DNA of 14,234 nt, taken from a bacterium. Its GTDB lineage: Bacteria > JACPSX01. Below, one piece after another: positions 1 to 14,234 of the stretch. The position numbers and the translations under genes are program-made. Every line of letters starts with the position of its first letter. Position 1 is the first letter of the stretch. The DNA lies in assembly GCA_035288405.1 (NCBI GenBank), contig DATEAK010000276.1, forward strand, positions 1 through 14,234. Direction: 5' to 3'. The notes beneath the pieces were generated by a model. The model ran no database searches. It was given only the letters and a program-made list of their open reading frames with translations, and was not told the DNA's origin.

Positions 1-257
1 ACAAGCTCCGCCACCTGCTCGTACGAGACTCCTCCTCTCTCTCGGGCCGGTCGTTTCGTCATTGCCATGACGAATGCTTTTTCAACCCCTCCCTCGTCCA
101 TTTCGCGGATGGACTCTTCGGGACTCACGACGGTACTGAACGCTTCCGCCCCAAAAAGACGGTCCAGTCCGCCCCTCTGAATCGGGCTCCATTGCGCATG
201 TTCGGCGCCCAGGTGGCGGAGATCGGTCGCAACATCGATTGCCAGGAGGTCGCTCAT
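1..257 (-). CDS. amidohydrolase-2-like TIM-barrel hydrolase; 5' end only, gene runs off the window
   Basis: Not in the ORF track because it has no stop inside the window. Minus-strand ATG at 257-255 sits ~7 nt after GGAGGA (GAGGGAGGACCAAACATC-ATG). Translation: MSDLLAIDVATDLRHLGAEHAQWSPIQRGGLDRLFGAEAFSTVVSPEESIREMDEGGVEKAFVMAMTK... The ...EEsIrEMDEgGVEKAFVm segment resembles the ...eemdaaGIdkavl segment of PF04909-type amidohydrolases. It starts 22 nt after the MaoC stop, same strand. Confidence 0.4.
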   Translation of the reverse strand, partial: MSDLLAIDVATDLRHLGAEHAQWSPIQRGGLDRLFGAEAFSTVVSPEESIREMDEGGVEKAFVMAMTKRPARERGGVSYEQVAEL

Positions 258-278
258 GATGTTTGGTCCTCCCTCTCG

Positions 279-1403
279 TTAAGATTCCCGGCTGTGCAGC
301 CCCACAGTAGCCGTCCCTGTGACGGTAGTTTCCTTGCGCTGGTTTTCCGTCCACAGCTCGCAGTCGACCAGGCACTCGCTGCCCTCTTTGCGTTTGCCTG
401 TAATCCGTCCGCGACACCAGGTCGTATCTCCGAACAGGTTGGGACGCTCGATCTTCACCTGGAGACGTTTGAGAAACCCGTCATCCCCCATCCAATTCGT
501 CAGGAGGTGGCCCATCCAACTGATGCGTTGGTGGCCCACATCGTAGGCCCCGGGCATGCCGATGATTTCCCGGGCGACCCTCTCATCCAGGTGCCCCACG
601 GCAGCGTTGATGAGTTCGCCCTGGGCGTTGCGGTAAAACATCTTGTCGCCCTTATAGGGATCCAGATAGGATCGCTCCAGAGCCTTGAAGGGCGTAGGAT
701 AACCGAGGCCCGCCATGTAACAAACCATGTCCACGAGGTTCAGGGGACCTTTGACCACGGGAGTGATCAGGTCCCCCGCATTCACCTCTTCCCAGAATCG
801 GGTCTTGGATCCTCTCATTTCTTCGCGCAGAACGTCCTGGCGAATAGCTTCCAGTTGTTCCTCGGTGTAGGTCTGTCTGCGCGCCTCCTGGCGCATATGA
901 CCCTCGGCTCCAACCCGGGGAATGCGGAGTGTGCGTCCCAAAGCACGGGCAAGGAGCTTGCCGTCCTGCCGGGTGTAGGTAACTTCCCCCACCTGAATCA
1001 GGAAACGTTCCACTTTTTTCCCGCGATGTTCCTCTACGTCTACGATCCGCACGCATGGGGTAATGCCGTCACCGGCACGCGCCACATCGTAAAAAGTCCA
1101 ATCGGTTCCTCCGAAGATGAGCTGGATGCCTCCGAGCCCGGGGGCTACGATCGTCGTGTCAACGGTGTGCAGGAAAGTGGGCGGGGCAATCGTGCAGCCG
1201 TAAGGGCTTTTCTTGCCGTAATCCCGGCTGCACCAGAGAGGATTTTCGTCTCCGATTCCGTGGGCGTAGTGACGGATCGCGTCTTGACTCGCCTCCTCGT
1301 TCCATTGGTTTCCGGGTTTCGCTCGCACCACTTCCTGACCGATCATGGCGCGGGCTTCCTGAACCAGCTCGTCCGTCAAGGGAATTGGCTGGACACCTGA
1401 CAT
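279..1403 (-). CDS. MaoC-like / FAS1-type double hot-dog (R)-specific enoyl-CoA hydratase/dehydratase
   Basis: Track ORF is 279..1514. The likely true start is the internal ATG at 1403-1401 (MSGVQPIPLTDELVQEARAMIGQEV...), preceded by GGAGGAACCAAGTG. The ATG overlaps the IclR stop as TGATG. The ~374-aa product has an N-terminal non-catalytic hot-dog half and a C-terminal MaoC-like half (…GDDGFLKRLQVKIERPNLFGDTTWCRGRITGKRKE…). Confidence 0.75.
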   Translation of the reverse strand: MSGVQPIPLTDELVQEARAMIGQEVVRAKPGNQWNEEASQDAIRHYAHGIGDENPLWCSRDYGKKSPYGCTIAPPTFLHTVDTTIVAPGLGGIQLIFGGTDWTFYDVARAGDGITPCVRIVDVEEHRGKKVERFLIQVGEVTYTRQDGKLLARALGRTLRIPRVGAEGHMRQEARRQTYTEEQLEAIRQDVLREEMRGSKTRFWEEVNAGDLITPVVKGPLNLVDMVCYMAGLGYPTPFKALERSYLDPYKGDKMFYRNAQGELINAAVGHLDERVAREIIGMPGAYDVGHQRISWMGHLLTNWMGDDGFLKRLQVKIERPNLFGDTTWCRGRITGKRKEGSECLVDCELWTENQRKETTVTGTATVGLHSRES

Positions 1404-2323
1404 CACTTGGTTCCTCCGGTTGGGGTTAAACTTTTTGTTGCGGGGTTGAAAGCGGGGAAAACGAGCTTCTTGCCCGGGAATCCTATTTTCTGCGACAACT
1501 CGAGAGCCGCGCAAACAGCCGCCTGCCCGAGGGACTCGAAATCGCCGTCGAGGAACTGAGCAGCCGGCCTTCCAATGCCGATGGCACCCATCACCGCGCC
1601 GGATTGATCCAGCACCGGAGCAGCCACTGCCCTCACACCCGGAAGGGATTCGTTCCTGTTCGTGGCGTAACCTCTCCGGCGCACCCGTTCCAATTCTTGC
1701 AGAAGGAGCTTCGTGGAAACGATGGTCTCACGTGTGAAGGGACGAAGCGGGGATTTCTTCAGGAGCACTTTCACCTCAGCACCACTACATCCGGCCAGTA
1801 GAGCCTTTCCAATCGCGCCATAATGAATCGGACGCTGGTCCCCTTCGATGATGATCAGACGGACCTGGTCGGGGCTTTCAACGGCAGCCACGGTCACCTG
1901 GGTCAATTCCTCTCGATCGGCGACTCGGAAGAACACAGTGGCGCGATGGCGGGCGGCCACGGGCTTCAGGACGGGATTGGCCAGGTCACAGAGGTACTGA
2001 AAGTTGCGGACTCGCCTGCCCAGCTCGAACAGCTTGAGACCCAGGCAATACTTTCCGTTCGGTTCCTGTTGTTCCAGAAAGTGTCGCCCCACGAGCGTAC
2101 GCAGCGCTTTGTGCGCTCGGCTCTTGTGCAGCCCAAGACGACGGCTGATTTCGGTGACGCCCAGCTCTTTCTCGGGCCCGAGAAAGCATTCGAGGATGCG
2201 AAGGCCCACATCGAGCCCTTGGGCTAGATAAAGGGTCGTCTTCCGGCGACGAGGCGGTGAAGAAGTTGGCACTGAGTCCGTCCCCTCCGGGGGTAGAGAG
2301 TATAAGTGCAACTGCGATCCCAT
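1403..2323 (-). CDS. IclR-family transcriptional regulator
   Basis: N-terminal wHTH LAQGLDVGLRILECFLGPEKELGVTEISRRLGLHKSRAHKALRTLVGRHFLEQQ followed by an IclR-type C-terminal effector domain. Start is uncertain: no SD before ATG 2323. An internal GTG (residue 18) lies ~9 nt after GGAGGGG and is an alternative. Confidence 0.8.
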   Translation of the reverse strand: MGSQLHLYSLPPEGTDSVPTSSPPRRRKTTLYLAQGLDVGLRILECFLGPEKELGVTEISRRLGLHKSRAHKALRTLVGRHFLEQQEPNGKYCLGLKLFELGRRVRNFQYLCDLANPVLKPVAARHRATVFFRVADREELTQVTVAAVESPDQVRLIIIEGDQRPIHYGAIGKALLAGCSGAEVKVLLKKSPLRPFTRETIVSTKLLLQELERVRRRGYATNRNESLPGVRAVAAPVLDQSGAVMGAIGIGRPAAQFLDGDFESLGQAAVCAALELSQKIGFPGKKLVFPAFNPATKSLTPTGGTK

Positions 2324-2452
2324 CTGTTCTTGTATGGGAAAGCGAGTTTCGAGTTTAATCTTCTTGGCGCTGGATTGTAAACGGAAAAATTCAATGCCCC
2401 AACCCTATCCCAGAGGGAGAGGGAGAATCCATGTCCTGTCAAAATACGAGTC

Positions 2453-2526
2453 ATGGCCGCGGGCTCCTTGCGGTGGCATTTGTCGCAGTTCTCCTGGACG
2501 TTGTGGCCACCGAAACGGCGGCACAT
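2453..2526 (-). pseudogene. relic duplicate of the 3' end of the multihaem cytochrome gene (…GGHNVQENCDKCHRKEPAAM…)
   Basis: Nucleotides 2453-2526 are ~79% identical to 4139-4201, the 3' end of the cytochrome at 4106-4678, in the same orientation. Translation MCRRFGGHNVQENCDKCHRKEPAAM parallels ACASCHNTQENCQKCHRKQPTAM. A GGAGGAACT-ATG lies at 2526, but the downstream reading frame is low-complexity and runs into the IclR start region. It sits inside spurious track ORF 2224..2733. Confidence 0.4.
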
Positions 2527-2558
2527 AGTTCCTCCGCGGAAGGCCGCGGTAATCAGCC

Positions 2559-2587
2559 TTGACATTGCGCGGGCAAGGAAATAGAGT
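2559..2587 (+). promoter_or_regulatory. sigma70-like promoter candidate TTGACA-N17-TAGAGT upstream of the nucleotidyltransferase gene
   Basis: TTGACA at 2559-2564, a 17-nt spacer, then TAGAGT at 2582-2587, ~95 nt upstream of the 2684 start on the same strand. Sequence match only. Confidence 0.3.
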
Positions 2588-2683
2588 TGTTTCAAAGGAT
2601 TATGTTCGCGGATTGTTCCTGGTTGGAATGTGGGAACCGACGGCTGCGGGAATCGTGTTGGGAAGTGATCATCACTACGGGGG

Positions 2684-3037
2684 ATGCTTGTTGTGGCAAG
2701 ATCCAGGCAAGTGAAGAGTAGCCGGCCTCTCAAAGGGATTCTTCGGGAGCTTGCGCAGGCACTAAAAGACCGATACGGGGAGAAATTTGTGGGTCTCTGG
2801 CTCTATGGATCCCAGGCCCGCGGTCAGGCCCACGACCAATCAGACGTCGACCTTTTGTTGCTCCTGCGGGGAGAAGTCCGACCCTCAAAAGAAATTGACC
2901 GGATTGCCGACCTGCTGGCCGATTTTAACCTGCGGTACGGAGAACTCCTGTCGGTTCTCCCTGTACATGAGCAGACTTTCAAGAACGGCGACGGCCCTTT
3001 CTGGCGCAACGTGCGCCGGGAAGGCAAGGCCGCATGA
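2684..3037 (+). CDS. MntA-like minimal nucleotidyltransferase (Pol-beta superfamily), toxin-antitoxin-associated type
   Basis: Motif GSQARGQAHDQSDVDLLLLL matches the G-S-x(n)-D-x-D nucleotidyltransferase signature. Size is ~115 aa. The ATG at 2684 has a poor SD; GTG at 2693 preceded by GGGGGA is an alternative start. The stop overlaps the next gene as ATGA. Confidence 0.75.
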   Translation: MLVVARSRQVKSSRPLKGILRELAQALKDRYGEKFVGLWLYGSQARGQAHDQSDVDLLLLLRGEVRPSKEIDRIADLLADFNLRYGELLSVLPVHEQTFKNGDGPFWRNVRREGKAA

Positions 3038-3444
3038 TTGAACGGGAAGGCTTGATCCACAAGGCCCGGCGCTTCCTAATGAAGAAAGTACCGCCTAACG
3101 GAGCCCGGAGGAAAGATAACGGGATGCGTGCCGAATATGATTTCGCAGGCGGAATGCGCGGCAAGCACCATCGGGCCATGCAAGCCGGATATACAGTTAC
3201 GATTCATCAGGCGGATGGTACATCCGTCACTGAGGAGGTAAGACCTAAGGAAGGCGTAGTCATCCTAGCGCCAGATGTACGGGAGTACTTCCCGGACGCT
3301 GAGTCGGTGAACACAGCTTTGCGCTTGCTCATTAGGCTCATTCCTGACGAGCGTACCTCCGCTGCGAAAAGGGCGAAGAGTCGCGACGCGAGACGCCCGG
3401 ATGCCTTCCCCGGTGGCCGGAAATCGACCACGAAGAGGAGATAA
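3034..3444 (+). CDS. DUF4415/BrnA-like putative antitoxin-type protein
   Basis: The M-R-A-EYDF-AGG-M-RGK-H motif and …VVILAPDVREYFPDAESVNTALRLLIRL resemble the eYDFskakrGk / …v.irLd.dvleyf….iN.aLr… pattern of BrnA/DUF4415 proteins. The ATG at 3034 overlaps the upstream stop as ATGA. An internal ATG at 3124 (GGAGGA 11 nt upstream) would give a more typical ~106-aa product. No HEPN Rx4-6H motif is present, so it is not a HepT partner. Confidence 0.45.
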   Translation: MIEREGLIHKARRFLMKKVPPNGARRKDNGMRAEYDFAGGMRGKHHRAMQAGYTVTIHQADGTSVTEEVRPKEGVVILAPDVREYFPDAESVNTALRLLIRLIPDERTSAAKRAKSRDARRPDAFPGGRKSTTKRR

Positions 3445-3522
3445 GGGTAAATTGACTTCCGACTTATTTTCCAGGTCCAGGGGCTGGGTCAAAGGCCCTC
3501 GGTGAGATAGTGGAGGAGGACA

Positions 3523-3762
3523 ATGCCGAAGATTGAGGTAAACGAGGAGCAAATTCTGATTGCCCTGGAGCAGCTTTCTCCGGCGGCCAGACGGGTCGCA
3601 CTCGGCAAGCTGATTGGCGGCCTGGAAAGGCTCGACCGTCTGGTGGACCGAAACCGGGAAAAGATCGAGAGCATCTGTCGCGACCGAGGACTGGACTTTT
3701 CCCGACTCACGGAAGAAGAGCGCGAGGCACTGGTGGATGAGATTCTCCATACAGGTGCCTAG
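3523..3762 (+). CDS. small helical protein, putative antitoxin of the downstream PIN remnant
   Basis: Strong SD GGAGGAGGA directly before the ATG at 3523. The 79-aa product is charged, coiled-coil-like and has no TM. Its stop TAG at 3760-3762 is immediately followed by the GTG of the PIN fragment. Confidence 0.45.
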   Translation: MPKIEVNEEQILIALEQLSPAARRVALGKLIGGLERLDRLVDRNREKIESICRDRGLDFSRLTEEEREALVDEILHTGA

Positions 3763-3933
3763 GTGAAGGTTGTCCTGGACACCAACATCAATAAATTCCT
3801 CGAAACAGCTCAGGTCTCCGGCGCCACTTATATTATCTCTGGCGATCACCACCTTCTGAGTCTGGGAACATTTGCTAACATTTCTGTGATTCGAGCCCGC
3901 GCCTTTCTTGACACACTTGGTCCCAACGAGTAG
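3763..3933 (+). pseudogene. PIN-domain toxin remnant with in-frame internal deletion
   Basis: Starting from the GTG: VKVVLDTNI|NKFLETAQVSGATYIISGDHHLLSLGTFANISVIRARAFL…*. The N-terminal vvlDTN strand is fused directly to the C-terminal DNKFLE…A.YlvTgDkdLL……iltP.eFl segment of PIN_3-type toxins. About 80 central residues, including the catalytic acidic residues, are missing. At 56 aa it is below the track threshold. Confidence 0.5.
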
Positions 3934-4105
3934 AGGTTGCACAGAAGTATTTGCGGGTTCTTGATAAACTGGTGCGGGCGTACGGTCGGGCAAACCTGTC
4001 CATAACCGTCGATGGTGGAAAGTTTCGACAGTGAAACACCTTCCCTTTGGCCTCTTTCCTGGGGCAGGAGGAAAGGCTTCAGGAAAAGCAGACGGGTGAA
4101 GCGGT

Positions 4106-4678
4106 CTAGCTCGCTGATTTGTTCCCGGCTGCCGGGGCCATGGCTGTGGGCTGCTTGCGGTGACACTTCTGGCAGTTTTCCTGGGTATTGTGGCAGCTTG
4201 CACATGCCTCCATGGAAGGCCGGTTCGTCGGTGTGATGCGGGCGTCGTGGGCGATGTTCACGTGACATTGCACGCAGGCGACTCCCATGTCGCCGGCGTG
4301 AAGCTTGTGAGGAATCTTGATCCCCTACACGTTGACTCGCATGATTCTGGGCTCGCCGTTTCCCACTTCCTTGTGGCAACTGCGGCACTTCTTGTCCACG
4401 TCACCGGGATCCGCTGAGAAGCTCTGCGGGAAACCTTGAGCAATGGGAAACTTGGCCTTGCCGTGGCAGCCGATGCAGGGAATTTTGGAGGTGTGCCCTG
4501 TAGCGGAGACTGCAAGAGGTGTGGCCCCCTGACCGTGGCAGGTCAGGCAAAAGCTCGGATTGCCGGAGGAGTAGCGGATCAGAGACAGAGTTCCCACGAT
4601 ACTGAGAACGATCGCAGCCACGCCTCCTAGGAGGATGGGGCCGCGCCAGCGATGAGGGATGCGGATCCCGGGATTCAT
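4106..4678 (-). CDS. membrane-anchored NapC/NirT/NrfH-like multihaem cytochrome c (six CxxCH), interrupted by an in-frame TAG at 4325-4327
   Basis: Track ORFs 4325..4678 and 4106..4288 are in the same frame, separated by a single TAG (4327-4325) plus 12 sense codons (…RIMRVNV*GIKIPHKLHAGDMGVACVQCH…). There is an N-terminal TM helix, an SFCLTCH first-haem motif typical of NapC/NrfH, and then CIGCH, CRSCH | CVQCH, CASCH, CQKCH. SD GGAGGAAAACAATA precedes the ATG at 4678. There is no SD before the internal Met at 4288. Confidence 0.75.
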
Positions 4679-4692
4679 TATTGTTTTCCTCC

Positions 4693-6951
4693 TTACACCT
4701 TGGCTACTTCGACTTCAGTTTCCATCCAGGCGTATTCCTGGCTCACCGGATCTTCCTTTTTCGGAACGATGGCGTTTAGATAAATTCCGCTGCCTTGTCC
4801 CTCCCACCAGACCAGGAGGGTGTCGGGATCACTGCTCTTGAAGCTCTTGCCCCGGGCAATGCGGCCGTGCCCCCAGTGCCCGAAGCCTTCCGCACAGGCC
4901 ACCACCTGAGGGTGAACTCCCTGGCTGATCCGTACTTTCTGCGTGACGGTGCCGTTCGCAGTTTTCAGGCGCACCTGATCCCCCTCCCGCACATGCAGAG
5001 CTGCGGCGGTTTCAGGATGGAGCCACAGGGGGTTGTCATGCTGGATCTCGGCGAGCCACTTGCAGGCCGCGGTGCGAGACCCTCCGCGCACGGTGCCCTT
5101 GAAAGTGGCGAGCATGAGCCGGCCGTTCGTGCGCCCGTTTTTTTCGGGCTCATAGCTCGGCAATCCTGCGAATCCCTGGCGGTGCATGGCCTCGGAGTAA
5201 ACTTCAAAGCGGCGAGAGGCGGTCTTGAACCCTTTTCCCCGATACTGCCGGAATCGGGGCTTTGCTTTTTCGTTAAACCATACCCCTTTTTTCTTGAGGG
5301 CTTCAAACCCTCCGGCCCCGGCCAGTCCGTCGATCTTCGGGGCCACCTTTTCCAGGTAGTCTTCAAAACTCCGGTAGGGGAAGAACGGTTCGACTCCGGG
5401 GATTCGGCGCGCCAGATCCAGGCACACCTCGGTAAATGGTTTTACCTTGGGGGGAGGCGTGACGAGGGGTTGCCGCAAACTCACGTACGGTACGTGTTCG
5501 AAGCTGGGGCCTGACTCCAGATCCCAACGCTCGAGATAGGTGGCGTCGGGCAGGACCAAGTCGCACAAGATTGCGGTCTCGCTCATGAAGGTGTCCACTG
5601 CCACCGAGTAGGGAATGAGCCGCTCGTCCTTGAAGACTTGAGTGATGGACCCCGAGTCCGGGGAAGCGTAAACGGGGTTGGCGGTGTAGGCCAGGTAAAT
5701 TCCAACTTTGATTTTTCGGCGGGCAATGTCCGAGAACAGGTTGTTGTGGTGGAAGGGAGAAGCCTGGCTTACCTTGGGAGGCACCGGTGTCAGGTCCGGG
5801 ATCGCAGCTCGCCGAGGGAAACAGGGACCGCCGGGCACGTCGACGTTTCCGATCACGGCGTTCAGAAGCGCAACGCAGCGCTCGTTCTGTGTTCCCTGCT
5901 GCCGCATGGAAACTCCGCGACCCGTGAGTGTGGTCGCCGGCTTCGTGGTTGCAAACTCGCGGGCCAGCCTCCGGATCACTGCTGCCGGCACCCCGCTTAC
6001 CTTCTGGGCGGCTTCGGGCGTGTAGGGATCCAGGTGGCGGCGCATGTGAACCAGGGGGAAGTTCGTCCACTCTTCTAGAAACTGCCGGTCGTGGAGTCCT
6101 TCCTCGATGATGGTGCGGGCCATGGCCATGGCCACGAACCCGTCCGTTCCCGGAGTGATCGGGTACCACTCATCGCTGCGCCCCGAGGTGTTCGAGATGC
6201 GCACGTCGAAGGTGACCAGGCGGGCGCCGTTCATGCGAGCCTCGTTGAGGCGCTGGATGAGAGGCAGATGGAAGAGATAGGCCTCGTAAGGATTGCCGCC
6301 GAAGTTGAGGATGTATTTGCTACGGGAGATGTCGGGAATCAGCACATCCTCGCCGTAGGTGAGAAGAGAGGCTGTCTCCCGACTGGCGCCGCCCAGGGAA
6401 GTCTCCAGTGTGTCCGAGGAAGTTCCATAGGCATGCAGGAAGCGCCGCACGAAGTTCAGCGTGGCGTTCTCCTTGGACTTGAAGTTTCCCTGGAAGATGA
6501 AGCGGTCCGCCTGTCCTTTCGCCTTGAGCTCCTGCAGCTTGGTCGAGAGTTCCTGAATCGCCTGATCCCAGGAGATCTGTTCCCAGCGCATCTCCCCGCG
6601 CTTGCCCGTGCGCTTGAGGGGGAACAGGAGGCGATCCGGATTGTTCACCAGGTTGGTGCCCGCCTGGCCCCGGGCGCAGAGTTTGCCCCGATTATTGGGA
6701 TGCAGGGGATTACCCTCGATTTTCACCAGCCGCCCTGAGTTAGTATCCACGTAACCCAGGATGCCGCAGCCTGCCGCGCACTGAAAGCAGGTACTGGGGA
6801 TGGCGACCCGGGCTTTGCCGGTGGTACGTGATACTTCCTCTCCTCCCGGTTTGAGCTCCTGGCCGAGACCGGGCAGGGGAAGCATCTCCCCCAGGGCCAG
6901 AATTCCCGCCCCGCCGATTCCAAACTTAAGAAACCTTCTGCGATCAATCAT
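4693..6951 (-). CDS. Tat-exported molybdopterin (bis-MGD) oxidoreductase catalytic subunit, PsrA/PhsA/TtrA family
   Basis: N-terminal twin-arginine signal MIDRRRFLKFGIGGAGILALG. FS0 [4Fe-4S] motif CFQCAAGCGI…(27)…C. The 752-aa length matches PhsA/PsrA. Its start lies 2 nt after the SPFH stop (TAACGATG). Confidence 0.9.
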   Translation of the reverse strand: MIDRRRFLKFGIGGAGILALGEMLPLPGLGQELKPGGEEVSRTTGKARVAIPSTCFQCAAGCGILGYVDTNSGRLVKIEGNPLHPNNRGKLCARGQAGTNLVNNPDRLLFPLKRTGKRGEMRWEQISWDQAIQELSTKLQELKAKGQADRFIFQGNFKSKENATLNFVRRFLHAYGTSSDTLETSLGGASRETASLLTYGEDVLIPDISRSKYILNFGGNPYEAYLFHLPLIQRLNEARMNGARLVTFDVRISNTSGRSDEWYPITPGTDGFVAMAMARTIIEEGLHDRQFLEEWTNFPLVHMRRHLDPYTPEAAQKVSGVPAAVIRRLAREFATTKPATTLTGRGVSMRQQGTQNERCVALLNAVIGNVDVPGGPCFPRRAAIPDLTPVPPKVSQASPFHHNNLFSDIARRKIKVGIYLAYTANPVYASPDSGSITQVFKDERLIPYSVAVDTFMSETAILCDLVLPDATYLERWDLESGPSFEHVPYVSLRQPLVTPPPKVKPFTEVCLDLARRIPGVEPFFPYRSFEDYLEKVAPKIDGLAGAGGFEALKKKGVWFNEKAKPRFRQYRGKGFKTASRRFEVYSEAMHRQGFAGLPSYEPEKNGRTNGRLMLATFKGTVRGGSRTAACKWLAEIQHDNPLWLHPETAAALHVREGDQVRLKTANGTVTQKVRISQGVHPQVVACAEGFGHWGHGRIARGKSFKSSDPDTLLVWWEGQGSGIYLNAIVPKKEDPVSQEYAWMETEVEVAKV

Positions 6952-6953
6952 CG

Positions 6954-7952
6954 TTATTCACTCGCTGAATGGCTGCCGTTGGCGTCCGGCTTTTCACCGT
7001 TGCCGCTGTTGCTGTTCGTAATCTTGTTGAGCGCGGTCACGCCCATGAGAGCTCCCAGCCCCATGGTTTCGACGGCCGAGCTCGGTACGATGACCATGGA
7101 GCCCCTCTCCTTGAGGCCTTCGTAGAGCATGTTCATGGCTCGCAGGTGAAGGGCCGTGGGATTATCCTTGTAGGATTCGGCTGCCTCGGCGAACATCTGG
7201 GCAATCTGAGTCTCCGATCGTCCGAGGATCACTCGGGCCTGACGCTCTCTCTCTGCCTGGGCCTGGATCGACAGGGCGTCCTGGAGAGAGGCCGGGATGA
7301 TCACGTCCCGGATCTCCACGGAAAGAACCTGAAGGCCCCAGCCGTCGGTGCGCTTGTCAATGAGGTTCTTGATCTGCTCGTCGATATTCTCACGCCCCAC
7401 GAGCATATCGGAGAGCTCGCTCTTGCCGATCACATCCCGCAGAGCCGTCTGGGATGCCCAGCTGATCACGTCGTAGTAGTCGGTGACTTCCAGTGCCGCT
7501 TTTTCAGGGTTGACGACTTTCCAGAAGCAGACGGCGTCCACGTCTACGGGGACGTTGTCTTTGGTCAAGGTTTCCTCGGCCCGGAAGCCGGTAGCGGTTA
7601 GCCGCAGGTCGATCCAGTAGGGAATCGTGTCAATCAGGGGGAAGATGAAAAAGAGGCCCGGGCCCGCCATCCTATGGAATTTCCCCAAGCGCAGGACGAT
7701 GGCGCGCTCCCACTGAGTCGCGACCTTCAGAGCCAGAAGGATAAACACGCCCACCGCCAGCAGAATCCCAGTAGGAATCGGGTTGTTTGTCAGGACGAAG
7801 GCCCCTACTCCGAACAGGGCGCACGCCACAAACAAGGTGGCCGAGAGGAGATTCGGGCGCAGCGTACCGGCCCGGATCTTCTGGGCCTCGAACTCATCCT
7901 GCTGTCTTTTGGCGGCGCGCCGGATCTCTTGCTTGGTACTCGGTTCCATCAT
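6954..7952 (-). CDS. SPFH/band-7 (stomatin/HflKC-like) membrane protein
   Basis: One N-terminal TM followed by the characteristic ATQWERAIVLRLGKF…GPGLFFIFPLID SPFH core and a coiled-coil Q/E/R-rich region. Strong SD AAGGAGGAA sits 4-5 nt before ATGATG at 7952. It lies between the NrfD and catalytic-subunit genes. Confidence 0.85.
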   Translation of the reverse strand: MMEPSTKQEIRRAAKRQQDEFEAQKIRAGTLRPNLLSATLFVACALFGVGAFVLTNNPIPTGILLAVGVFILLALKVATQWERAIVLRLGKFHRMAGPGLFFIFPLIDTIPYWIDLRLTATGFRAEETLTKDNVPVDVDAVCFWKVVNPEKAALEVTDYYDVISWASQTALRDVIGKSELSDMLVGRENIDEQIKNLIDKRTDGWGLQVLSVEIRDVIIPASLQDALSIQAQAERERQARVILGRSETQIAQMFAEAAESYKDNPTALHLRAMNMLYEGLKERGSMVIVPSSAVETMGLGALMGVTALNKITNSNSGNGEKPDANGSHSASE

Positions 7953-7979
7953 TCAGTTCCTCCTTGCGTGGTTACCAGT

Positions 7980-8879
7980 TTAGTGTTGGGGAATTGCCTG
8001 TCCGCCGATTACCATGGTGTAGCGCATCGCGAAGATTCCGAGCATGACTAGAACCGAGGCCACCGAGATCCCAAAGGGGGTCCGGGTGATGCGGTTGCTC
8101 AAGAGGGCAAGGGGGACCAGCGCCCCCAGGAGGATCTCTCCTCCCAGGAAGATATTTCGGAAGGCCCCTGTGAGGATGAGTTGTGCGGCCTCGTACGCTT
8201 CGTCGTGGGAGTTCAAGAGGACGAGAATGTCCGTGCCGATCAGGGAGAGATCCGCAACGATGGATACGATCAGCATGACCACCAGGCCGTTGATGAGGTC
8301 CATGTTAATCTTGCGCTCGGCGCTGAAGAATTTGTCCCGGGCGATTGCGATCAGAATCATCATGGCGATTCCGGAAACCATGGCCGAAGCCAGAAAGATG
8401 AAGGGCATCAACGCCGTGTTCCACAAAATGCGCGCCTTGGCCAGAGCCAGGATGAACCCCGTGTAGCCGTGCACCGACAGGGCGAGCGGGATGCCGATCA
8501 AGCCGAAGATCTTTGTGAGCTTGGCTTTTCCCATAAACATGAAAGTTCCGTAGATCATGCAGTTGATCGGGTACAGGGTGAGAAGAAACGAACCGTAAGA
8601 AATGGCCGAAGTTGGGTTGATGTAGTAGAAGAGTTCCCAGAAGCGCCAGGGCTGCTCCAGGTCGATCATCAAGTTCAAGGGCGCCACGATAAGGAGCAGG
8701 ATAGCCACGACGACGCCGATCTTCCCCAGGGGCTTGTAGCGGATCATGCCGAAGCCGTAAGCCAGTGTGGACAGGATGAAGGAACCGGCGCTGAGTCCCG
8801 TGAGATAGAAATAAACGGCAATGGGGATCCCCAGAGCCTCTCCGTAAGCGACGTTGTAAATGGTCGTAACTTCAGTCAT
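7980..8879 (-). CDS. NrfD/PsrC-family polytopic membrane quinol-interacting anchor subunit
   Basis: 299 aa, ~8 hydrophobic helices, typical NrfD/PsrC composition. The start ATG is 1 nt after the FeS-subunit stop (TAAGATG), with AGAGGAAG SD. Confidence 0.9.
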   Translation of the reverse strand: MTEVTTIYNVAYGEALGIPIAVYFYLTGLSAGSFILSTLAYGFGMIRYKPLGKIGVVVAILLLIVAPLNLMIDLEQPWRFWELFYYINPTSAISYGSFLLTLYPINCMIYGTFMFMGKAKLTKIFGLIGIPLALSVHGYTGFILALAKARILWNTALMPFIFLASAMVSGIAMMILIAIARDKFFSAERKINMDLINGLVVMLIVSIVADLSLIGTDILVLLNSHDEAYEAAQLILTGAFRNIFLGGEILLGALVPLALLSNRITRTPFGISVASVLVMLGIFAMRYTMVIGGQAIPQH

Positions 8880-8880
8880 C

Positions 8881-9486
8881 TTAGGCTTCCTCTACCCTTG
8901 TTTTGGCGGCCATCTCATCGAGGCCGATATAGAAAACTCGGGGCTCGGTCCCCTTCTCGGGCTTGAGAACCTGGATTGCGTTGGTGGCGATGAGACGGGA
9001 GATTTCGCTTTCGGGGTCGTTCACGTCTCCAAACACGCGGGCCCCGCCGGGACAGGTGTTGACACAAGACGGCACCAGCCCGGCGTCCACCCGGTGAAAG
9101 CAGAAGGTGCATTTCTGCACGATTTTCTTGACGGGGTTCACGTGCCGGGCGTCGTAAGGACAGGCGGCCATGCAATACTTGCAGCCGATGCAGCGGTGCT
9201 CGTCGATCATGACGATGCCGTCGGGCCTGCGGTAGGTCGCTTTCACGGGGCACACGCTCAGGCAAGCGGGACGCTCGCAGTTGTTGCACAGGCTGGGGAT
9301 GAAGACACGCCGTACGTTGGGGTAAGACCCTTTCTCTACGGTCTTGACCCAGGTCCGGTAGACTCCGAGGGGAACATCGTTTTCACTCTTGCAGGCAACG
9401 GCGCAGGAGTGACAGCCCAGGCAGCGCCTCAAGTCAATGAGCATGGCGTAGCGTTTGCTTTTTTTTTGGGAACCATTCCCTTTCAC
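8881..9486 (-). CDS. PsrB/TtrB/NrfC-like four-cluster [4Fe-4S] electron-transfer subunit
   Basis: Four ferredoxin-type motifs: CLGCHSCAVACKSEN, CNNCERPACLSVCP, CIGCKYCMAACP, CTFCFHRVDAGLVPSCVNTCP. Conserved KRYAMLIDLRRCLGC N-terminus. GTG start. No Tat motif, so it is presumably a hitchhiker on the catalytic subunit. Confidence 0.9.
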   Translation of the reverse strand: MKGNGSQKKSKRYAMLIDLRRCLGCHSCAVACKSENDVPLGVYRTWVKTVEKGSYPNVRRVFIPSLCNNCERPACLSVCPVKATYRRPDGIVMIDEHRCIGCKYCMAACPYDARHVNPVKKIVQKCTFCFHRVDAGLVPSCVNTCPGGARVFGDVNDPESEISRLIATNAIQVLKPEKGTEPRVFYIGLDEMAAKTRVEEA

Positions 9487-9488
9487 GA

Positions 9489-9611
9489 TTACTTCCCTTT
9501 TTCAGAAAGGTTTTTCCCCTGCGCGCCAAAGGCGTGCCAGCTCCAGGCGGCAAACAGCGCCACCGCAAACAAAATTCCGCCGAACGTCAAAAAGATCTTA
9601 AACCAGGTCAC
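9489..9611 (-). CDS. unannotated 40-aa single-TM peptide (VTWFKIFLTFGGILFAVALFAAWSWHAFGAQGKNLSEKGK)
   Basis: GTG start at 9611-9609 lies 5 nt after AAAGGAGGAA. The TAA stop at 9491-9489 is 2 nt before the FeS-subunit start. It has a hydrophobic core and a basic C-tail, and is below the 60-aa track threshold. Confidence 0.3.
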   Translation of the reverse strand: MTWFKIFLTFGGILFAVALFAAWSWHAFGAQGKNLSEKGK

Positions 9612-9637
9612 TGGTTCCTCCTTTCATGGCCTTCGCG

Positions 9638-10054
9638 TTACCCTGAGTTCGGGGGGGTGCCCTCAGAGGAAAAGAATTGCTGTACCGTCCTGAGCCCGAT
9701 GAGGAGAGGAGTGGGCTCGGAGGACGCTGCGGGATCGAGGTTCTTCTCTGGGTCGAACCTCTCCAGGGATCTGTTGACGAGATGTTTGGTGATGGCTCCC
9801 ACGGCCAGCGCTACTAGAGAGCCTACGGCCAGCCAGAAGAGGCAGGCCACGGCCACTGCGAGGGCCATGCCGCCGACTACGAAGAGGGTGACGACTCCGC
9901 GCTCCGGCAGGGGAGAACCCATGATACTCACTGCCGAGATCAAGCCGAAAGAGCCCCCATAAAATATTCCCCAGGGAACTCCCACGAACAGAAAAACTGC
10001 GGCACCGGCAACAGCGCCGACTTTCAGTTGGAGTCGCAGTGCTCGTCGTGTCAT
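9638..10054 (-). CDS. hypothetical ~3-TM membrane protein with proline-rich soluble C-tail
   Basis: 138 aa. Three hydrophobic segments (AVAGAAVFLFVGVPWGIFYGG / FGLISAVSIMG / VVTLFVVGGMALAVAVACLFWLAVGSLVALAVGAI). Its start is 9 nt downstream of the receiver-gene stop. I recognise no family. Confidence 0.55.
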   Translation of the reverse strand: MTRRALRLQLKVGAVAGAAVFLFVGVPWGIFYGGSFGLISAVSIMGSPLPERGVVTLFVVGGMALAVAVACLFWLAVGSLVALAVGAITKHLVNRSLERFDPEKNLDPAASSEPTPLLIGLRTVQQFFSSEGTPPNSG

Positions 10055-10063
10055 GGCCCTCTC

Positions 10064-10495
10064 CTATTTTTGTACGCCCCCCTCCAGGGCCCGCAAAATC
10101 TGCCGCGGCTGGAAGGGCTCGAGAAAGCAAGGGAAGAAATCGACTTGCTCTCTTTCGCCACCGCAAAGCTCCGACTCATCTCCCACGGTTAGAATCACTC
10201 TGACCCCGGGATTGAGTCGGCGCACGATGGAAGCCACTTCGTATCCGGAAAGATCCCGAAGCTTCCCCTTGATGATGACTGCGTCCACCCCTCCGTTGAG
10301 CACCATGGAGACGGCCTTTCGGCCCTGGCGGGTTCGGGAAACCCGGTAGCCTTCCTCCTCGAGGAAATCCGTAAGGGACTCGCACTGGTCCTGTTCGTCG
10401 TGAACGAGAAGAATGCGCCGAACCTCGGGCCTTTCCGTGTCTCCGTTGCCCCTGGAGAAGAACTTTTTCCCAAGGAGATCCATCAATCCGTTCAT
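10064..10495 (-). CDS. stand-alone CheY-like receiver-domain protein with degenerate active site (pseudo-receiver)
   Basis: Track ORF is 10064..10546 with a GTG start. That start overlaps the sigma54 promoter, so the likely start is the ATG at 10495 (M18), with AGAGGAAC SD 7 nt upstream. The receiver fold is conserved (RRILLVHDE…T in RVILTVGD). However, the phospho-acceptor position reads VIIK (Lys) and the β5 Lys position reads CFLEPF (Glu). Confidence 0.7.
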   Translation of the reverse strand: MNGLMDLLGKKFFSRGNGDTERPEVRRILLVHDEQDQCESLTDFLEEEGYRVSRTRQGRKAVSMVLNGGVDAVIIKGKLRDLSGYEVASIVRRLNPGVRVILTVGDESELCGGEREQVDFFPCFLEPFQPRQILRALEGGVQK

Positions 10496-10529
10496 CGGTG
10501 GTTCCTCTGTTAGTGTTGCCATGGAGAAG

Positions 10530-10546
10530 TGCAGGTTGTGTGCCAC
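10530..10546 (-). promoter_or_regulatory. sigma54 (RpoN) -24/-12 promoter TGGCAC-N5-CTGCA for the oxidoreductase operon
   Basis: The minus strand reads G-TGGCAC-ACAAC-CTGCA (plus 10530-10546 tgcaggttgtgtgccac). This is one mismatch from TGGCAC-N5-TTGCA. It lies ~35 nt upstream of the proposed receiver start and downstream of an NtrC-type activator gene. Confidence 0.5.
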
Positions 10547-10591
10547 AGCGCCGACACACCGGCAACGCCTTAGCAGGCCGCTGAAAAAGTC

Positions 10592-10616
10592 TCGTGGTTC
10601 GACAGGCTCACCACGA
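10592..10616. promoter_or_regulatory. inverted repeat TCGTGGT-N11-ACCACGA, candidate enhancer-binding-protein UAS
   Basis: Perfect 7-bp arms at 10592-10598 and 10610-10616, centred ~85 bp upstream of the predicted sigma54 transcription start. Confidence 0.3.
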
Positions 10617-10784
10617 ACGGTTAAGTACTAATGTTTTCAATAGCAGTCCCGTTCGGCCTGAGCTTGTCGAAGGCCAAATGGAGGGCGTTAGATTTGCTGG
10701 AAGATTTGAGGGTCTGAGGAGTGTTCAGGAAGTTCGGAAAGGAGGGGAGAAAAAAAGTGAAACGAAGTTTTGCAAAGGATCATT

Positions 10785-12167
10785 TCATTCTTTAATGTCT
10801 TTCTGGCTCTCCTCAATCTTGCGCCAGAGGGTCACGGTGCTGATTCCGAGGATCTCAGAAGCCTTTTTGCGGTTCCAGCGGGTGGCCTGCAGAACTTCCA
10901 AAATGTAGTCTTGCTCGATCTTCTTGAGGGAAGGGTATTGATCAACCCCCTTGGCGTCATTTATAGCAACAGATGAGGCGGGTACCGCTTCGCTGTTGAG
11001 CTGGCTGAAGCTGTCTATGGTGATTATCTCTGCTTCGGTGAGGATCACGGCGCGCTCGACGGCGTTTTCCAGCTCCCGGACATTTCCAGGCCACGGGTAG
11101 CTCTCCAGGAGAGCACGAGCTCCAGGGGTGAACCCCCTCACCCGTTTCTTCAAATCCGCGTTATACTTCGCGAGAAAGTAGTCGGCCAGCAGAGGAATAT
11201 CTCCCGGTCGTTCACGCAAGGGAGGAAGCATGATCGGCATCACATTCAGCCGGTAGTAGAGATCCTCGCGAAAGGTGCCGCGGCGGATGGCATCCTTCAG
11301 ATCCCGATTCGTGGCCGCCACGATGCGCACATCTACGAAGACCTTGCGCTCGCTTCCCACGGGCTGGATCTCTCTCTCCTGCAAGGCTCGCATGAGCTTG
11401 GCCTGGAGATCAACGCTCATGTCCCCTACCTCGTCCAGGAACAAAGTTCCGCCGTCGGCGAGCTCGAAGAGCCCTTTCTTACGGCGCAGGGCTCCGGTAA
11501 AGGCGCCCTTCTCATGGCCAAAGAGCTCGCTTTCCAGGAGATCCGCGGGGATGGCGGCGCAATTGACCACCACCAACTGGCCGTTGGCACGGCTGCTCTT
11601 CTGATGAACCTGCCGGGCCACGAGCTCCTTGCCCGTTCCCGTTTCCCCCAGGATCAGCACCGTGGAATCAGTGACGGCCACCTTGTCGATGAGCTGGCAT
11701 ACTTTCTGAATGGGGTCACTCTCGCCGATGATTTTTCCGGCGCTCACGGAACGGCGCAGGGCTTCCTTGAGGGCCCGGTTTTCCTGGAGGAGGTGCTGGC
11801 GCTCCAGGGCATTTTTGATCACCAGGCGCAGCTCGTCGGGGGTGAAGGGCTTGGGAACGTAGTCTACAGCCCCCTCCCGCATGGATTCCACCGCCGTGTC
11901 CACGTCGGCGTAACCCGTGATCATGATGACCGCCAGTTGGGAATCGATTTTGTGAAGGGATCGCAGGAGCTCGATGCCGCTCATCTTGGGCATCTTGATG
12001 TCGGCCACGATGATATCGAAAGCGTCGGTCCGAAAGCGCTCAAGGGCTTCGAAGCCGTTGCTGCAGGTCACGACCTCGTAATTTTCTTTCTTGAGGGCTT
12101 GGGTGCAGGCGTCCCGTGTGTCTTCCTCGTCGTCCACGATCAGGATGCGCTTGCGGGGCAGTTCCAT
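10785..12167 (-). CDS. NtrC-family sigma54-dependent response regulator (receiver + AAA+ + Fis-type HTH)
   Basis: Canonical receiver (ILIVDDEED…IIVADIKMP), Walker A GETGTGKE, the GAFTGA motif, and C-terminal HTH EILGISTVTLWRKI. AAAGGG SD. The gene lies 13 nt downstream of the kinase stop. Confidence 0.92.
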   Translation of the reverse strand: MELPRKRILIVDDEEDTRDACTQALKKENYEVVTCSNGFEALERFRTDAFDIIVADIKMPKMSGIELLRSLHKIDSQLAVIMITGYADVDTAVESMREGAVDYVPKPFTPDELRLVIKNALERQHLLQENRALKEALRRSVSAGKIIGESDPIQKVCQLIDKVAVTDSTVLILGETGTGKELVARQVHQKSSRANGQLVVVNCAAIPADLLESELFGHEKGAFTGALRRKKGLFELADGGTLFLDEVGDMSVDLQAKLMRALQEREIQPVGSERKVFVDVRIVAATNRDLKDAIRRGTFREDLYYRLNVMPIMLPPLRERPGDIPLLADYFLAKYNADLKKRVRGFTPGARALLESYPWPGNVRELENAVERAVILTEAEIITIDSFSQLNSEAVPASSVAINDAKGVDQYPSLKKIEQDYILEVLQATRWNRKKASEILGISTVTLWRKIEESQKDIKE

Positions 12168-12180
12168 AAACCCTTTCCCT

Positions 12181-14118
12181 CTATGCAGACACCGCAGCCA
12201 CGCCGGCCTGCACCGGAAGGCGAAAGATCAGAGCCGTCCCTCCTTCACCGTTGCCGCTCTCAATCCAGATGTTTCCCCCGTGCCTCTGGATGATCCCGTA
12301 ACAGATGGAGAGACCGAGTCCCGTCCCTTTATCTTTGGTCGTGTAAAAGGGCTCGAAAACTTTGGAGTGCAGTGCCTTGGGAATGCCGGGCCCGTTGTCT
12401 TTTACCGTCACAACGACCCAGTCTAGATCGAGTGCCCGGGTAATGACCTCGATCCGTCCTCCGGCATGAAATGCCTGGACGGAGTTCTGCATGACGTTCA
12501 CCAGAACCTGCTGGATCTGACTGCGGTCGCAGATAACCCGGGGAAGATCGGGTTCCAAGTGCAAGTGACACTCTACATTATTAATACGGATCTCGTTGGC
12601 CAAAATGCTATTGGCGGCCAGGACGATCTGATTCATATCGTTGGGTTCCATGTCCGTGTTGGTGCTGCGAGTGTAGTCCAGCAGATCCGAGACGATCTTC
12701 TTGCTGCGCACCACGTTGTCCACGATCTTGCGGATGTTCTTGTAATGAGGATCCTCGGGGGCGGTTTCCTCCAGGACGAGCTTGGAATAGAGGAGGATGT
12801 TTCCCAAGGGATTGTTGATCTCATGAGCCACGCCGGCGGCGAGCTGCCCCGTGGCTGCCAGGCGCTCGGAGTGGATGAGCTGCTTTTGCAGTGATTCCCG
12901 GCTCTTCTCCTCGGTGAGATCGTGGGTAATATCCACATAGGCCAGGGTGTGGTCGTGCTCGTCTCGCAGGCTGCTGATGTTGACAAAAGCAGGGAAAGTT
13001 TTACCGTTCTTGCGCAGAAGCTGAATCTCGCTCCGGTAGGATCCTTCCAGTTCAACGGCATTCCAGACTCGACGCTGCGTCTCTCCCAGGAGGGAGTAAG
13101 GCTCACCGGTTAGTTCCATAGCACCGTAGCCGAGCATCTCCTCGGCGCCGTGACTGAAGAAAAGGATGGTGCCGTTGGGATCTATGACGATGATGGACTC
13201 GCGCACGTTGCCAAGCACCCGCTCCAGGAGTTCCTTTTTGTCCCGAATCTCGATGGAGCGTTTGAGGGCGTCGGCCATCTCGTTGAAGGATTGGGCCAGA
13301 ACTCCGATCTCGTCTTCTCCTTCGCCCAGAACTTTCCTGTCGAAATCCCCCTTGCTGAAGAACTTCGTCAAGTCCACGAGCTTTTTCAGGCGGTTGATCA
13401 CCAGGCGGTTCAACAGGAGACTCAGGACGATGACCGCGGTGATGATCATGAGTCCCATGGAGTAGAGAACCTCTCTGAATTTCGTGGCGATTTGCTTCTC
13501 AATGTCGGTCATGGAGAAGTCGGTGATGAGGACCCCGTTGATCTTGGTCAGGGGACTGTGACAGCCGTAGCACTCGGGTTCGTTGAAGATGGGGTTCACG
13601 TTGCGGAAGATTTGCTCGCCGTTCTCTTCCTTATATATGACGGTCTTGTTACGCACTTCGGGGCTATACCGGTGGCAGATCTGGCAGGTGTAATCGTTCT
13701 GATTGAGGATCTCACCGACCCGTCTCATCTCCGGGGACATCTTGATCTCCCCGCGCTTGTCCACCAGGAAAATGTTGTCTACCCCCTTCTGCTTGCCGAC
13801 GGTTTCGATGATGTAGCGGGCCTCCTCCAGATCGCGGTTGATCATGGCGTGCTTGAGGCTCCCCTTGATGACGTCGCTTAAGTAATGGGTGCTGGAATCC
13901 CGCAGGTTTTCGATGAGGTCGTGGCGAAAGCGGAACACCTGGTAGCTGTAGAAGACCGACATGATGGCCACGATGGCCACCACGATCCCCACAGTTGCCT
14001 TGAAGCGTAAGCTTTGATGAAACCTCTTGATCCTCAAAGGCCAACCTATGGATGCAGAACGAACTTCGAACGGTTGACCCCTCCCAATGGGGAATACATG
14101 TAGTCTCTTTGGGGACAA
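12181..14118 (-). CDS. sensor histidine kinase: TM, periplasmic domain with two c-type haem motifs, TM, HAMP, PAS, HisKA, HATPase_c
   Basis: TM1 ATVGIVVAIVAIMSVFYSY. ~160-aa periplasmic region containing CQICH (13686-13672) and CYGCH (13572-13558). TM2 VLYSMGLMIITAVIVLSLLL. Then HAMP, PAS, the H-box AAGVAHEINNPL, and N/G1/G2 boxes (DNGPGIP…GTGLGLSI). The track start at 14118 is TTG; the true start is uncertain. Confidence 0.9.
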   Translation of the reverse strand: MSPKRLHVFPIGRGQPFEVRSASIGWPLRIKRFHQSLRFKATVGIVVAIVAIMSVFYSYQVFRFRHDLIENLRDSSTHYLSDVIKGSLKHAMINRDLEEARYIIETVGKQKGVDNIFLVDKRGEIKMSPEMRRVGEILNQNDYTCQICHRYSPEVRNKTVIYKEENGEQIFRNVNPIFNEPECYGCHSPLTKINGVLITDFSMTDIEKQIATKFREVLYSMGLMIITAVIVLSLLLNRLVINRLKKLVDLTKFFSKGDFDRKVLGEGEDEIGVLAQSFNEMADALKRSIEIRDKKELLERVLGNVRESIIVIDPNGTILFFSHGAEEMLGYGAMELTGEPYSLLGETQRRVWNAVELEGSYRSEIQLLRKNGKTFPAFVNISSLRDEHDHTLAYVDITHDLTEEKSRESLQKQLIHSERLAATGQLAAGVAHEINNPLGNILLYSKLVLEETAPEDPHYKNIRKIVDNVVRSKKIVSDLLDYTRSTNTDMEPNDMNQIVLAANSILANEIRINNVECHLHLEPDLPRVICDRSQIQQVLVNVMQNSVQAFHAGGRIEVITRALDLDWVVVTVKDNGPGIPKALHSKVFEPFYTTKDKGTGLGLSICYGIIQRHGGNIWIESGNGEGGTALIFRLPVQAGVAAVSA

Positions 14119-14234
14119 ATGGCAACTAAGGTAATTGCACTACGCGCTGGGGTCCGGCCGGAGAGGGGATTGTGGCCGGGGGTTAAATCAGTGATTTCCC
14201 CCCCTCCCCCCGTTCTCCCTGAGCCAGTCGAAGG

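Follow-up and report, generated by a model that had tools for sequence, protein, structure and literature searches.

A histidine kinase with a predicted two-haem periplasmic Cache sensor, encoded beside a sigma54-dependent activator and a molybdenum-enzyme respiratory operon

Here, we describe a sensor histidine kinase encoded in a 14,234-nucleotide stretch of bacterial DNA (contig DATEAK010000276.1 of assembly GCA_035288405.1, GTDB lineage JACPSX01, positions 1 to 14,234 of the forward strand; hereafter, the window), the periplasmic portion of which possesses a Cache fold and two CxxCH motifs, the signature of c-type haem attachment. Taken together, the topology, fold, homology, conservation and gene neighborhood of this protein make it probable (roughly 0.7, by our estimate) that it is a two-haem Cache sensor controlling the adjacent operon, which encodes a Psr-like molybdenum (Mo) enzyme and an NrfH-like multihaem cytochrome. 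Cache domains comprise the largest family of bacterial extracellular sensors and, to our knowledge, a covalent cofactor was recognized in them only in 2026, and then as one haem only. The features of the kinase on which the argument draws are as follows (TM, transmembrane helix; (-), minus strand).

12181..14037 (-), sensor histidine kinase gene (Pfam HAMP, PAS_9, HisKA and HATPase_c; start assigned by comparison with P0001 and P0004)
13933..14001 (-), TM1, residues ~40-62, preceded by the basic stretch RIKRFHQSLRFK (Kyte-Doolittle window scores 1.7-2.1)
13471..13932 (-), periplasmic single-Cache sensor domain, residues 63-216
13843..13845 (-), codon of Met92, candidate distal axial ligand of haem 2, kept in 138/145 sequences and aligned with GSU0935 Met60
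13672..13686 (-), CQICH, residues 145-149, the extra haem-c attachment motif (predicted haem 1), on helix alpha3 between strands beta2 and beta3
13558..13572 (-), CYGCH, residues 183-187, the putative ancestral Cache_heme attachment motif (predicted haem 2), aligned with CQSCH of GSU0582 and GSU0935
13399..13470 (-), TM2, residues ~217-240 (Kyte-Doolittle window scores 1.6-2.5)
13261..13416 (-), HAMP domain, residues 235-286 (Pfam PF00672)
12910..13230 (-), cytoplasmic PAS domain, residues 297-403 (Pfam PAS_9/PAS)
12208..12849 (-), kinase core, HisKA (dimerization and histidine phosphotransfer, DHp) and HATPase_c, residues 424-486 and 531-637 (Pfam)

The open reading frame (ORF) returned by the ORF finder spans 12181..14118 (-) and comprises 645 codons from a TTG at 14118. 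The start codon is probably the TTG at 14037, as in the homologues P0001 and P0004, which would yield a protein of 618 amino acids with the motifs at residues 118-122 and 156-160; the numbering of the 645-residue frame is used throughout. A preliminary description of this DNA, made from the letters alone, had reported CQICH and CYGCH 38 residues apart in the loop between TM1 and TM2, flanked as DYTCQICH and EPECYGCH. The translated ORF contains both flanks as quoted, the start-to-start distance of the motifs is 38 residues, and the motifs fall exactly at the two ends of the interval 13558-13686. All four cysteines of the ~154-residue loop belong to these motifs. When the loop was shuffled 10^6 times with its composition preserved, at least one CxxCH arose in 0.25% of the shuffles and at least two in 1e-6 (once), and this frequency, together with conservation of the motifs, rules out a chance origin.

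The strongly basic flanks of the TM helices, RIKRFHQSLRFK before TM1 and NRLVINRLKKL after TM2, and the net neutral loop-side flanks follow the positive-inside pattern which, with the HAMP domain placed directly after TM2, indicates that the sensor loop is extracytoplasmic. The HAMP position and the charge bias thus rule out a cytoplasmic loop, and the location proposed in the preliminary description holds. The HAMP, HisKA and HATPase_c domains all score above the Pfam thresholds, the kinase shows the features of class I (HisKA) with the H-box histidine at residue 432 (in HEINNP), and its cytoplasmic part scores best in NCBIfam against AtoS and ZraS, far below the equivalog cutoffs.

Searched alone, the loop matched the Pfam family PF21563 (Mcp40H-20_sensor) at 23.1 bits for the domain and 18.4 bits for the full-length protein (gathering threshold, 27), with further sub-threshold matches to Tll0287-like (PF11845), sCache_3_2 and dCache_1. 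Its best sequence match in PDB (E = 0.068) spanned CYGCH and was with 3b47, which is the structure of the haem-c sensor domain from the Geobacter chemoreceptor GSU0582. A profile built from an alignment of 45 family sensor domains (A1) matched the same structure at E = 2.1e-10 and 3b42 (GSU0935) at E = 1.4e-8, in two stretches each. In the C-terminal stretch, CYGCH aligned with CQSCH (Cys140/Cys143/His144), placing His187 on the proximal ligand His144; in the N-terminal stretch, Met92 aligned with chain residue 26, that is, Met60, the distal axial ligand in the GSU0935 crystal structure (residue numbering and ligand assignment from PMC8396549). This significant homology to crystallographically proven haem proteins, which includes the proximal histidine and the distal methionine, is what argues for haem in the window protein. 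PF21563 was also matched by the two-haem kinase of locus L022 (34.6 bits, above the threshold), by 46 of 79 sampled relatives at E <= 1e-3 and, in precomputed form, by P0153 (52% identical).

An AlphaFold2 model computed on A1 reached a mean predicted local distance difference test score (pLDDT) of 87.2 and a predicted template modeling score (pTM) of 0.81. In domain positions, to which 59 is added for the 645-residue numbering, the modeled order is alpha1(2-34), alpha2(38-49), beta(54-60), beta(65-68), alpha3(84-90), beta(100-104), beta(110-119), a short helix, beta(134-143) and alpha5(145-157). The sensor domain thereby has the single-Cache (PDC) fold and is a member of the Cache_heme family (PMC12889525; 10.64898/2026.05.25.727664). 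The preliminary description had recognized neither this known family (PF21563 / Cache_heme) nor its very large two-haem branch.

That branch became visible only when 1.84 billion cluster representatives were scanned exhaustively with HMMER, with 996, 345 and 20 matches at E <= 1e-3, 1e-10 and 1e-30, respectively; a word-indexed protein search had given 3 matches with a single sequence and 7 with a profile. Recurrence of the motifs in orthologues was expected of a genuine haem sensor, and both CxxCH motifs are kept in 136 of the 152 best matches, the second essentially always. Their spacing is fixed at 36-39 residues, mostly 38, across relatives that are only 27-55% identical. Several of the remaining relatives among these 152 carry Cx4-5CH at site 2 (the CYGCH position), which is lost in none; site 1 (the CQICH position) is lost in five, of which two retain the cysteine pair without the histidine and three lack the whole motif. 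In an alignment of 145 sequences, the Cys and His columns are conserved at 97-100%, with the histidine after the second cysteine of motif 1 kept in 141, and the other conserved positions are Met92 (95%), Asn179 (95%), Arg172 (86%), Asp200 (88%) and Gly195 (99%). The CQICH motif is conserved in about 95% of the family. The two-haem version occurs in Tectomicrobia, Methylomirabilota, Thermodesulfobacteriota and Chloroflexota lineages, among others, and the source databases label these proteins only as 'ATP-binding protein' or 'PAS domain (S-box) protein'.

To survey domain partners, 78 evenly spaced relatives and the window protein were scanned against Pfam. Among these 79 proteins, HAMP was found in 75, HATPase_c in 62, HisKA in 32, HisKA_3 in 33, PAS in about 32, GAF in about 20 and GGDEF in 8. 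Judged by these combinations, the two-haem domain appears to be a portable input module that is joined to many cytoplasmic modules via HAMP.

The two predicted sites differ in origin. The beta2-beta3 connector that carries CQICH is ~12 residues longer than in GSU0582 and GSU0935, and in the A1 profile alignment neither of these proteins has a CxxCH at the equivalent position; by this comparison, CYGCH would be the ancestral Cache_heme site and CQICH a subfamily-specific addition.

Downstream of the kinase, and on the same strand, lie the genes that the sensor is proposed to control.

10785..12167 (-), NtrC-type sigma54-dependent response regulator with receiver, AAA+ (GAFTGA) and HTH_8 domains
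10530..10545 (-), putative sigma54 -24/-12 element TGGCACACAACCTGCA, one mismatch, ahead of the small receiver gene and the operon
10064..10495 (-), stand-alone pseudo-receiver, the first gene after the sigma54 element
9638-10054 (-), hydrophobic ORF of 138 amino acids without a Pfam match
9524..9539 (-), second, weaker sigma54-like element TGGCACGCCTTTGGCG, ~40 nucleotides upstream of the iron-sulfur (Fe-S) gene
8881..9486 (-), 4Fe-4S subunit of the Mo-oxidoreductase complex (Pfam Fer4_11; NCBIfam TtrB/DsrO-like)
7980..8879 (-), NrfD/PsrC-type membrane quinol-interacting subunit (Pfam NrfD)
6954..7952 (-), SPFH/Band-7 membrane protein
4693..6951 (-), molybdopterin catalytic subunit, Psr/Phs-like, exported by twin-arginine translocation (Tat), with Mo-bis(pyranopterin guanine dinucleotide) (Mo-bisPGD)
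4106..4678 (-), NrfH/NapC-like membrane cytochrome, with six CxxCH motifs if the TAG at 4325-4327 is read through and three before it

The activator scores 113 bits for the receiver, 248 for AAA+ and 49 for HTH_8, with the receiver aspartate in ...VADIKMP. The sigma54 pattern used was TGGCAC-N5-TTGCW, or TGGCAC-N5-xTGC in the compared loci, and ~0.025 occurrences are expected per 300 nucleotides. Across the whole window the consensus was no more frequent than chance at two mismatches (5 found vs 6 expected), and the element is assigned as a putative promoter because of its position and its conservation in five loci. The catalytic subunit reached 340.5 bits against NCBIfam PhsA (cutoff 694) and E = 2e-65 against PsrA, its best match in PDB (2vpw); it falls under the NCBIfam equivalog cutoff for each of PhsA, TtrA, ArrA and DmsA, and the first three of these identities were rejected.

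Related loci were collected with an eight-sequence alignment as the query. The order kinase, activator, small receiver, Fe-S subunit, NrfD, SPFH, Mo subunit, cytochrome is shared by the window and loci L001 (Candidatus Tectomicrobia, 88-95% identity), L002 (Methylomirabilota), and L004 and L005 (Deltaproteobacteria/Thermodesulfobacteriota; ~50% identity for the kinase and 37-48% for the Mo subunit), and in all five a sigma54 -24/-12 element of predicted activity lies between the activator and small receiver genes. The preliminary description was correct, then, in placing the kinase beside a sigma54 activator and a respiratory operon, an arrangement conserved in at least three phyla. The Mo subunit diverges much faster than its neighbors, with between-locus identities of 37-48% vs 72-73% for the Fe-S subunit and 64-67% for SPFH.

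A metagenome scan yielded 30 further loci, several of which have a sigma54 activator gene after that of the two-haem kinase. More distant are loci L020, L022 and L024 (L020 707-9049, and 587-10571 in both L022 and L024), with sensors 44-46% identical, HAMP-GAF-HisKA_3 kinases and NarL/LuxR regulators. Directly after these come genes for Mo and Fe-S subunits, joined in L022 and L024 by one for an NrfD subunit, and for a cytochrome with 8 or 17 haems. Loci L014 and L015 encode 5- and 8-haem cytochromes, and L030 encodes 14- and 10-haem cytochromes downstream, near 14296 and 16680; the two-haem kinases of L014 and L030 likewise use regulators of the NarL type. At least 4 kb of sequence past the sensor gene is available for the window and 13 other loci; in 12 of these 14, near-duplicates included, it contains respiratory Mo/Fe-S/NrfD or multihaem genes, and this association is suggestive.

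Of the haem-bearing extracytoplasmic sensor proposed in the preliminary description, the location and the kinship are supported by topology, homology to GSU0582/GSU0935 and conservation; we infer the attachment of haem, the methionine switch, what the signal is and which way regulation runs, as follows. Haem 1 would be held by Cys145, Cys148 and His149 on helix alpha3 in the lengthened beta2-beta3 connector, and haem 2 by Cys183, Cys186 and His187; the sixth ligand of haem 2 would be Met92, located close to where the long N-terminal helix, a continuation of TM1, ends. By analogy with GSU0582 and GSU0935, reduction of the haems, or a small ligand displacing Met92, would switch the coordination and spin state of haem 2 and shift helix alpha1 relative to the beta-sheet, and the shift would be passed through TM1/TM2, HAMP and PAS to the kinase core. 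The kinase core would then set the phosphorylation of the adjacent NtrC-type activator, which would open the sigma54 promoter at 10530-10545 and drive expression of the pseudo-receiver, Fe-S, NrfD, SPFH, Psr-like Mo-enzyme and NrfH-like cytochrome genes. The most likely role of haem 1 would be that of an electron entry or relay center or of a second site for ligands, through which haem 2 would be coupled either to periplasmic cytochromes or to the substrate or product of the enzyme. Redox sensing is somewhat more likely than sensing of a specific ligand because the same sensor accompanies different respiratory modules.

A wider proposition, which we put forward tentatively and as less likely than not, is that two-haem Cache domains form a distinct, widespread and previously undescribed class of periplasmic sensors in which haem 1, on alpha3 at the ligand-pocket side, acts as an electron antenna equilibrating the His/Met switch haem with periplasmic cytochromes. 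Such kinases would respond to the periplasmic respiratory chain, either to its redox poise or to its electron flux, and induce Mo-enzyme and multihaem modules to match, which would explain the repeated placement of the sensor beside operons of this kind, whichever class of response regulator is present.

Several observations weigh against a two-haem sensor that controls the operon. The window protein itself lies just under the PF21563 threshold, and the haems, on this protein and on every two-motif relative, are predicted sites. The 145-sequence alignment contains no conserved second His or Met that would serve as the sixth ligand of haem 1 (His90 is present in only 45%), such that this haem may be five-coordinate or ligated by the partner subunit. 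The region of motif 1 has the lowest confidence in the model (pLDDT 74-77), and the losses of site 1 suggest that haem 1 is dispensable in some lineages. Finally, loci L018 and L013 (the latter with only 4 kb) lack respiratory genes downstream of the sensor.

The domain might instead be a haem-based sensor of gases or small ligands (nitric oxide (NO), carbon monoxide (CO), or a sulfur compound made or used by the Psr-like enzyme, such as sulfide, polysulfide or sulfite) that displace Met92 at an open or weakly ligated haem, a reading we regard as rather unlikely, although GSU0582 and GSU0935 bind NO and CO reversibly with displacement of Met60 (PMC8396549) and Cache_heme domains fused to signaling modules behave spectroscopically as NO sensors (PMC12889525). 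The putative five-coordinate state of haem 1 would suit a ligand sensor, as would the regulated operon, which encodes a substrate-specific reductase, operons of this type being often induced by substrate. However, the same sensor type stands beside several different Mo-enzyme and multihaem operons, which a general redox cue fits better, and a second haem is expected of an electron relay, whereas a ligand sensor would have no evident use for one.

A haem at CYGCH only, with CQICH reduced to a structural disulfide, a metal site or a decaying remnant in a functionally mono-haem protein, is improbable. Motif 1 does lack a structural precedent, falls where the model is least confident and is lost in 5 of the 152 relatives, in two of which the cysteine pair persists without the histidine. 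Nevertheless, retention of the histidine in 141 of 145 sequences, combined with the 36-39-residue spacing at 27-55% identity, is the mark of a haem-c site and not of a disulfide, and CxxCH is the recognized substrate wherever a bacterium matures cytochromes c in its periplasm, a capacity indicated in the host by the Tat-exported enzyme and multihaem cytochrome that the operon encodes. Hardly credible is a kinase that takes its operative input from the cytoplasmic PAS domain and uses the haem domain as an electron-transfer appendage or dimerization module: the PAS domain is present and stand-alone Cache_heme proteins have been proposed to be redox and not sensory proteins (PMC12889525), but the haem domain is combined with varied cytoplasmic modules among the 79 sampled proteins (PAS, 32; GAF, about 20; GGDEF, 8), with HisKA and HisKA_3 cores alike, and is followed by HAMP in 75.

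Several features of the operon and its surroundings were observed in passing. In the pseudo-receiver, Lys (Gln in L014) replaces the phospho-acceptor Asp and Glu occupies the position of the conserved Lys in all lineages compared (L001 4141-4572, L002 4696-5106, L004 13342-13761, L014 6301-6759); the GTG start at 10546 given by the ORF finder overlaps the promoter element, and the ATG at 10495 is probably the real start. Between the small receiver and Fe-S genes, L002 (5139-6308), L004 (13785-14918), L005, L014 and L015 encode a c554-like periplasmic cytochrome with five CxxCH motifs, in place of which the window and L001 have the 138-amino-acid hydrophobic ORF, 83% identical between the two and thus below the 88-95% of its neighbors. 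The weaker TGGCACGCCTTTGGCG-type element occurs at the same place in L001 and is absent from L002, L004 and L005. An SPFH gene between the NrfD and catalytic subunit genes, as in the window, L001, L002, L004 and L005, is unusual for Psr/Phs-type operons; in L022 and L024, a related SPFH gene near 10654 follows the different Mo-enzyme/17-haem operon. In the window, the cytochrome gene has an in-frame stop, TAG, after ...RIMRVNV, at a codon that reads CAG (Gln) in L001. Beyond it, the frame is conserved (79% over 193 amino acids) with three more CxxCH motifs up to the stop at 4106, such that the intact protein would have six haems; the TAG reflects a recent nonsense mutation, variation between strains or an error in sequencing.

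In the 2.2-4.3 kb stretch of the window, the only convincing genes are an ORF with a nucleotidyltransferase domain (MNT-like; 2684-3037 (+)) and, overlapping it by 4 nucleotides, an ORF of 136 amino acids without a Pfam match (3034-3444 (+)). Lying between the IclR gene and the respiratory operon, the two may represent an inserted toxin-antitoxin pair. The left end encodes an IclR-family regulator and a FAS1/MaoC-dehydratase-like protein (ORFs 279-1514 (-) and 1403-2323 (-)); these ORFs overlap by ~110 nucleotides, and one start is probably called too far upstream.

If the proposed reading is correct, the conserved two-haem Cache domain would add an intramolecular electron-relay design to the repertoire of bacterial sensors. 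It would also provide a concrete candidate for how uncultured anaerobes decide on the expression of alternative respiratory modules, a poorly understood question. Mono-haem Cache_heme sensors are already known from structure and spectroscopy, and proteins with two motifs have so far been listed only; what is new here is how large the two-motif subfamily is, how constant the geometry of its two sites is and how often it recurs beside periplasmic respiratory operons.

Two-motif proteins are said to have been listed first by Londer et al. in 2006. GSU0591, GSU0599, Adeh_2011 and Adeh_3383 are listed as signal transducers with an additional haem-binding motif, relatives of GSU0582 and GSU0935, and GSU0599 is, like the window kinase, a two-component protein (PMC3831638, PMC8396549). 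These four proteins are known from such listings alone. The remark in the preliminary description that di-haem kinase sensors are rarely characterized agrees with the literature, in which we found only passing mentions (PMC3831638, PMC8396549) and no characterization.

The closest characterized counterparts are GSU0582 and GSU0935 (PDB 3B47 and 3B42; PF21563). In both, as in the window protein, a domain of PAS-like/single-Cache fold lies between two TM helices and is followed by HAMP, and the CxxCH before the last strand and the distal methionine (Met60, equivalent to Met92) align residue for residue. In these sensors, the oxidized haem is high-spin, the reduced haem is low-spin with His/Met ligation, and NO or CO displaces Met60 (PMC8396549). 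Unlike these one-haem domains with chemoreceptor output, the window protein has a second CxxCH 38 residues upstream and signals through a PAS-HisKA kinase that has a sigma54 activator as its partner. The Cache_heme/sCache_heme family (DUF3365, Tll0287; PDB 5B82) is likewise described with a single CxxCH (Deshpande et al. 2026; PMC12889525, 10.64898/2026.05.25.727664), and a second motif is mentioned in neither of these two 2026 preprints. Characterized Cache_heme members carry one haem per domain, and the presence of CQICH is the defining difference of the window protein. In Tll0287, the haem is reportedly ligated by His and Cys, according to the structure paper of 2017, whereas the two-haem family conserves Met.

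The regulated operon resembles PsrABC of Thermus thermophilus (PDB 2VPW-2VPZ) and PhsABC in its Tat-exported Mo-bisPGD, four-cluster Fe-S and NrfD-type subunits. It differs from both in the addition of an SPFH protein, an NrfH-like multihaem cytochrome and a pseudo-receiver, to which the relatives add a five-haem c554-like cytochrome, and from PhsABC in that its Mo subunit lies below the PhsA cutoff, being related to Psr/Phs without being an equivalog. The regulatory pair itself is organized like NtrB/NtrC, AtoS/AtoC and ZraS/ZraR, that is, a kinase and a partner with receiver, AAA+ (GAFTGA) and HTH_8 domains, with a -24/-12 element downstream; what sets the window kinase apart from all three is its unrelated input domain.

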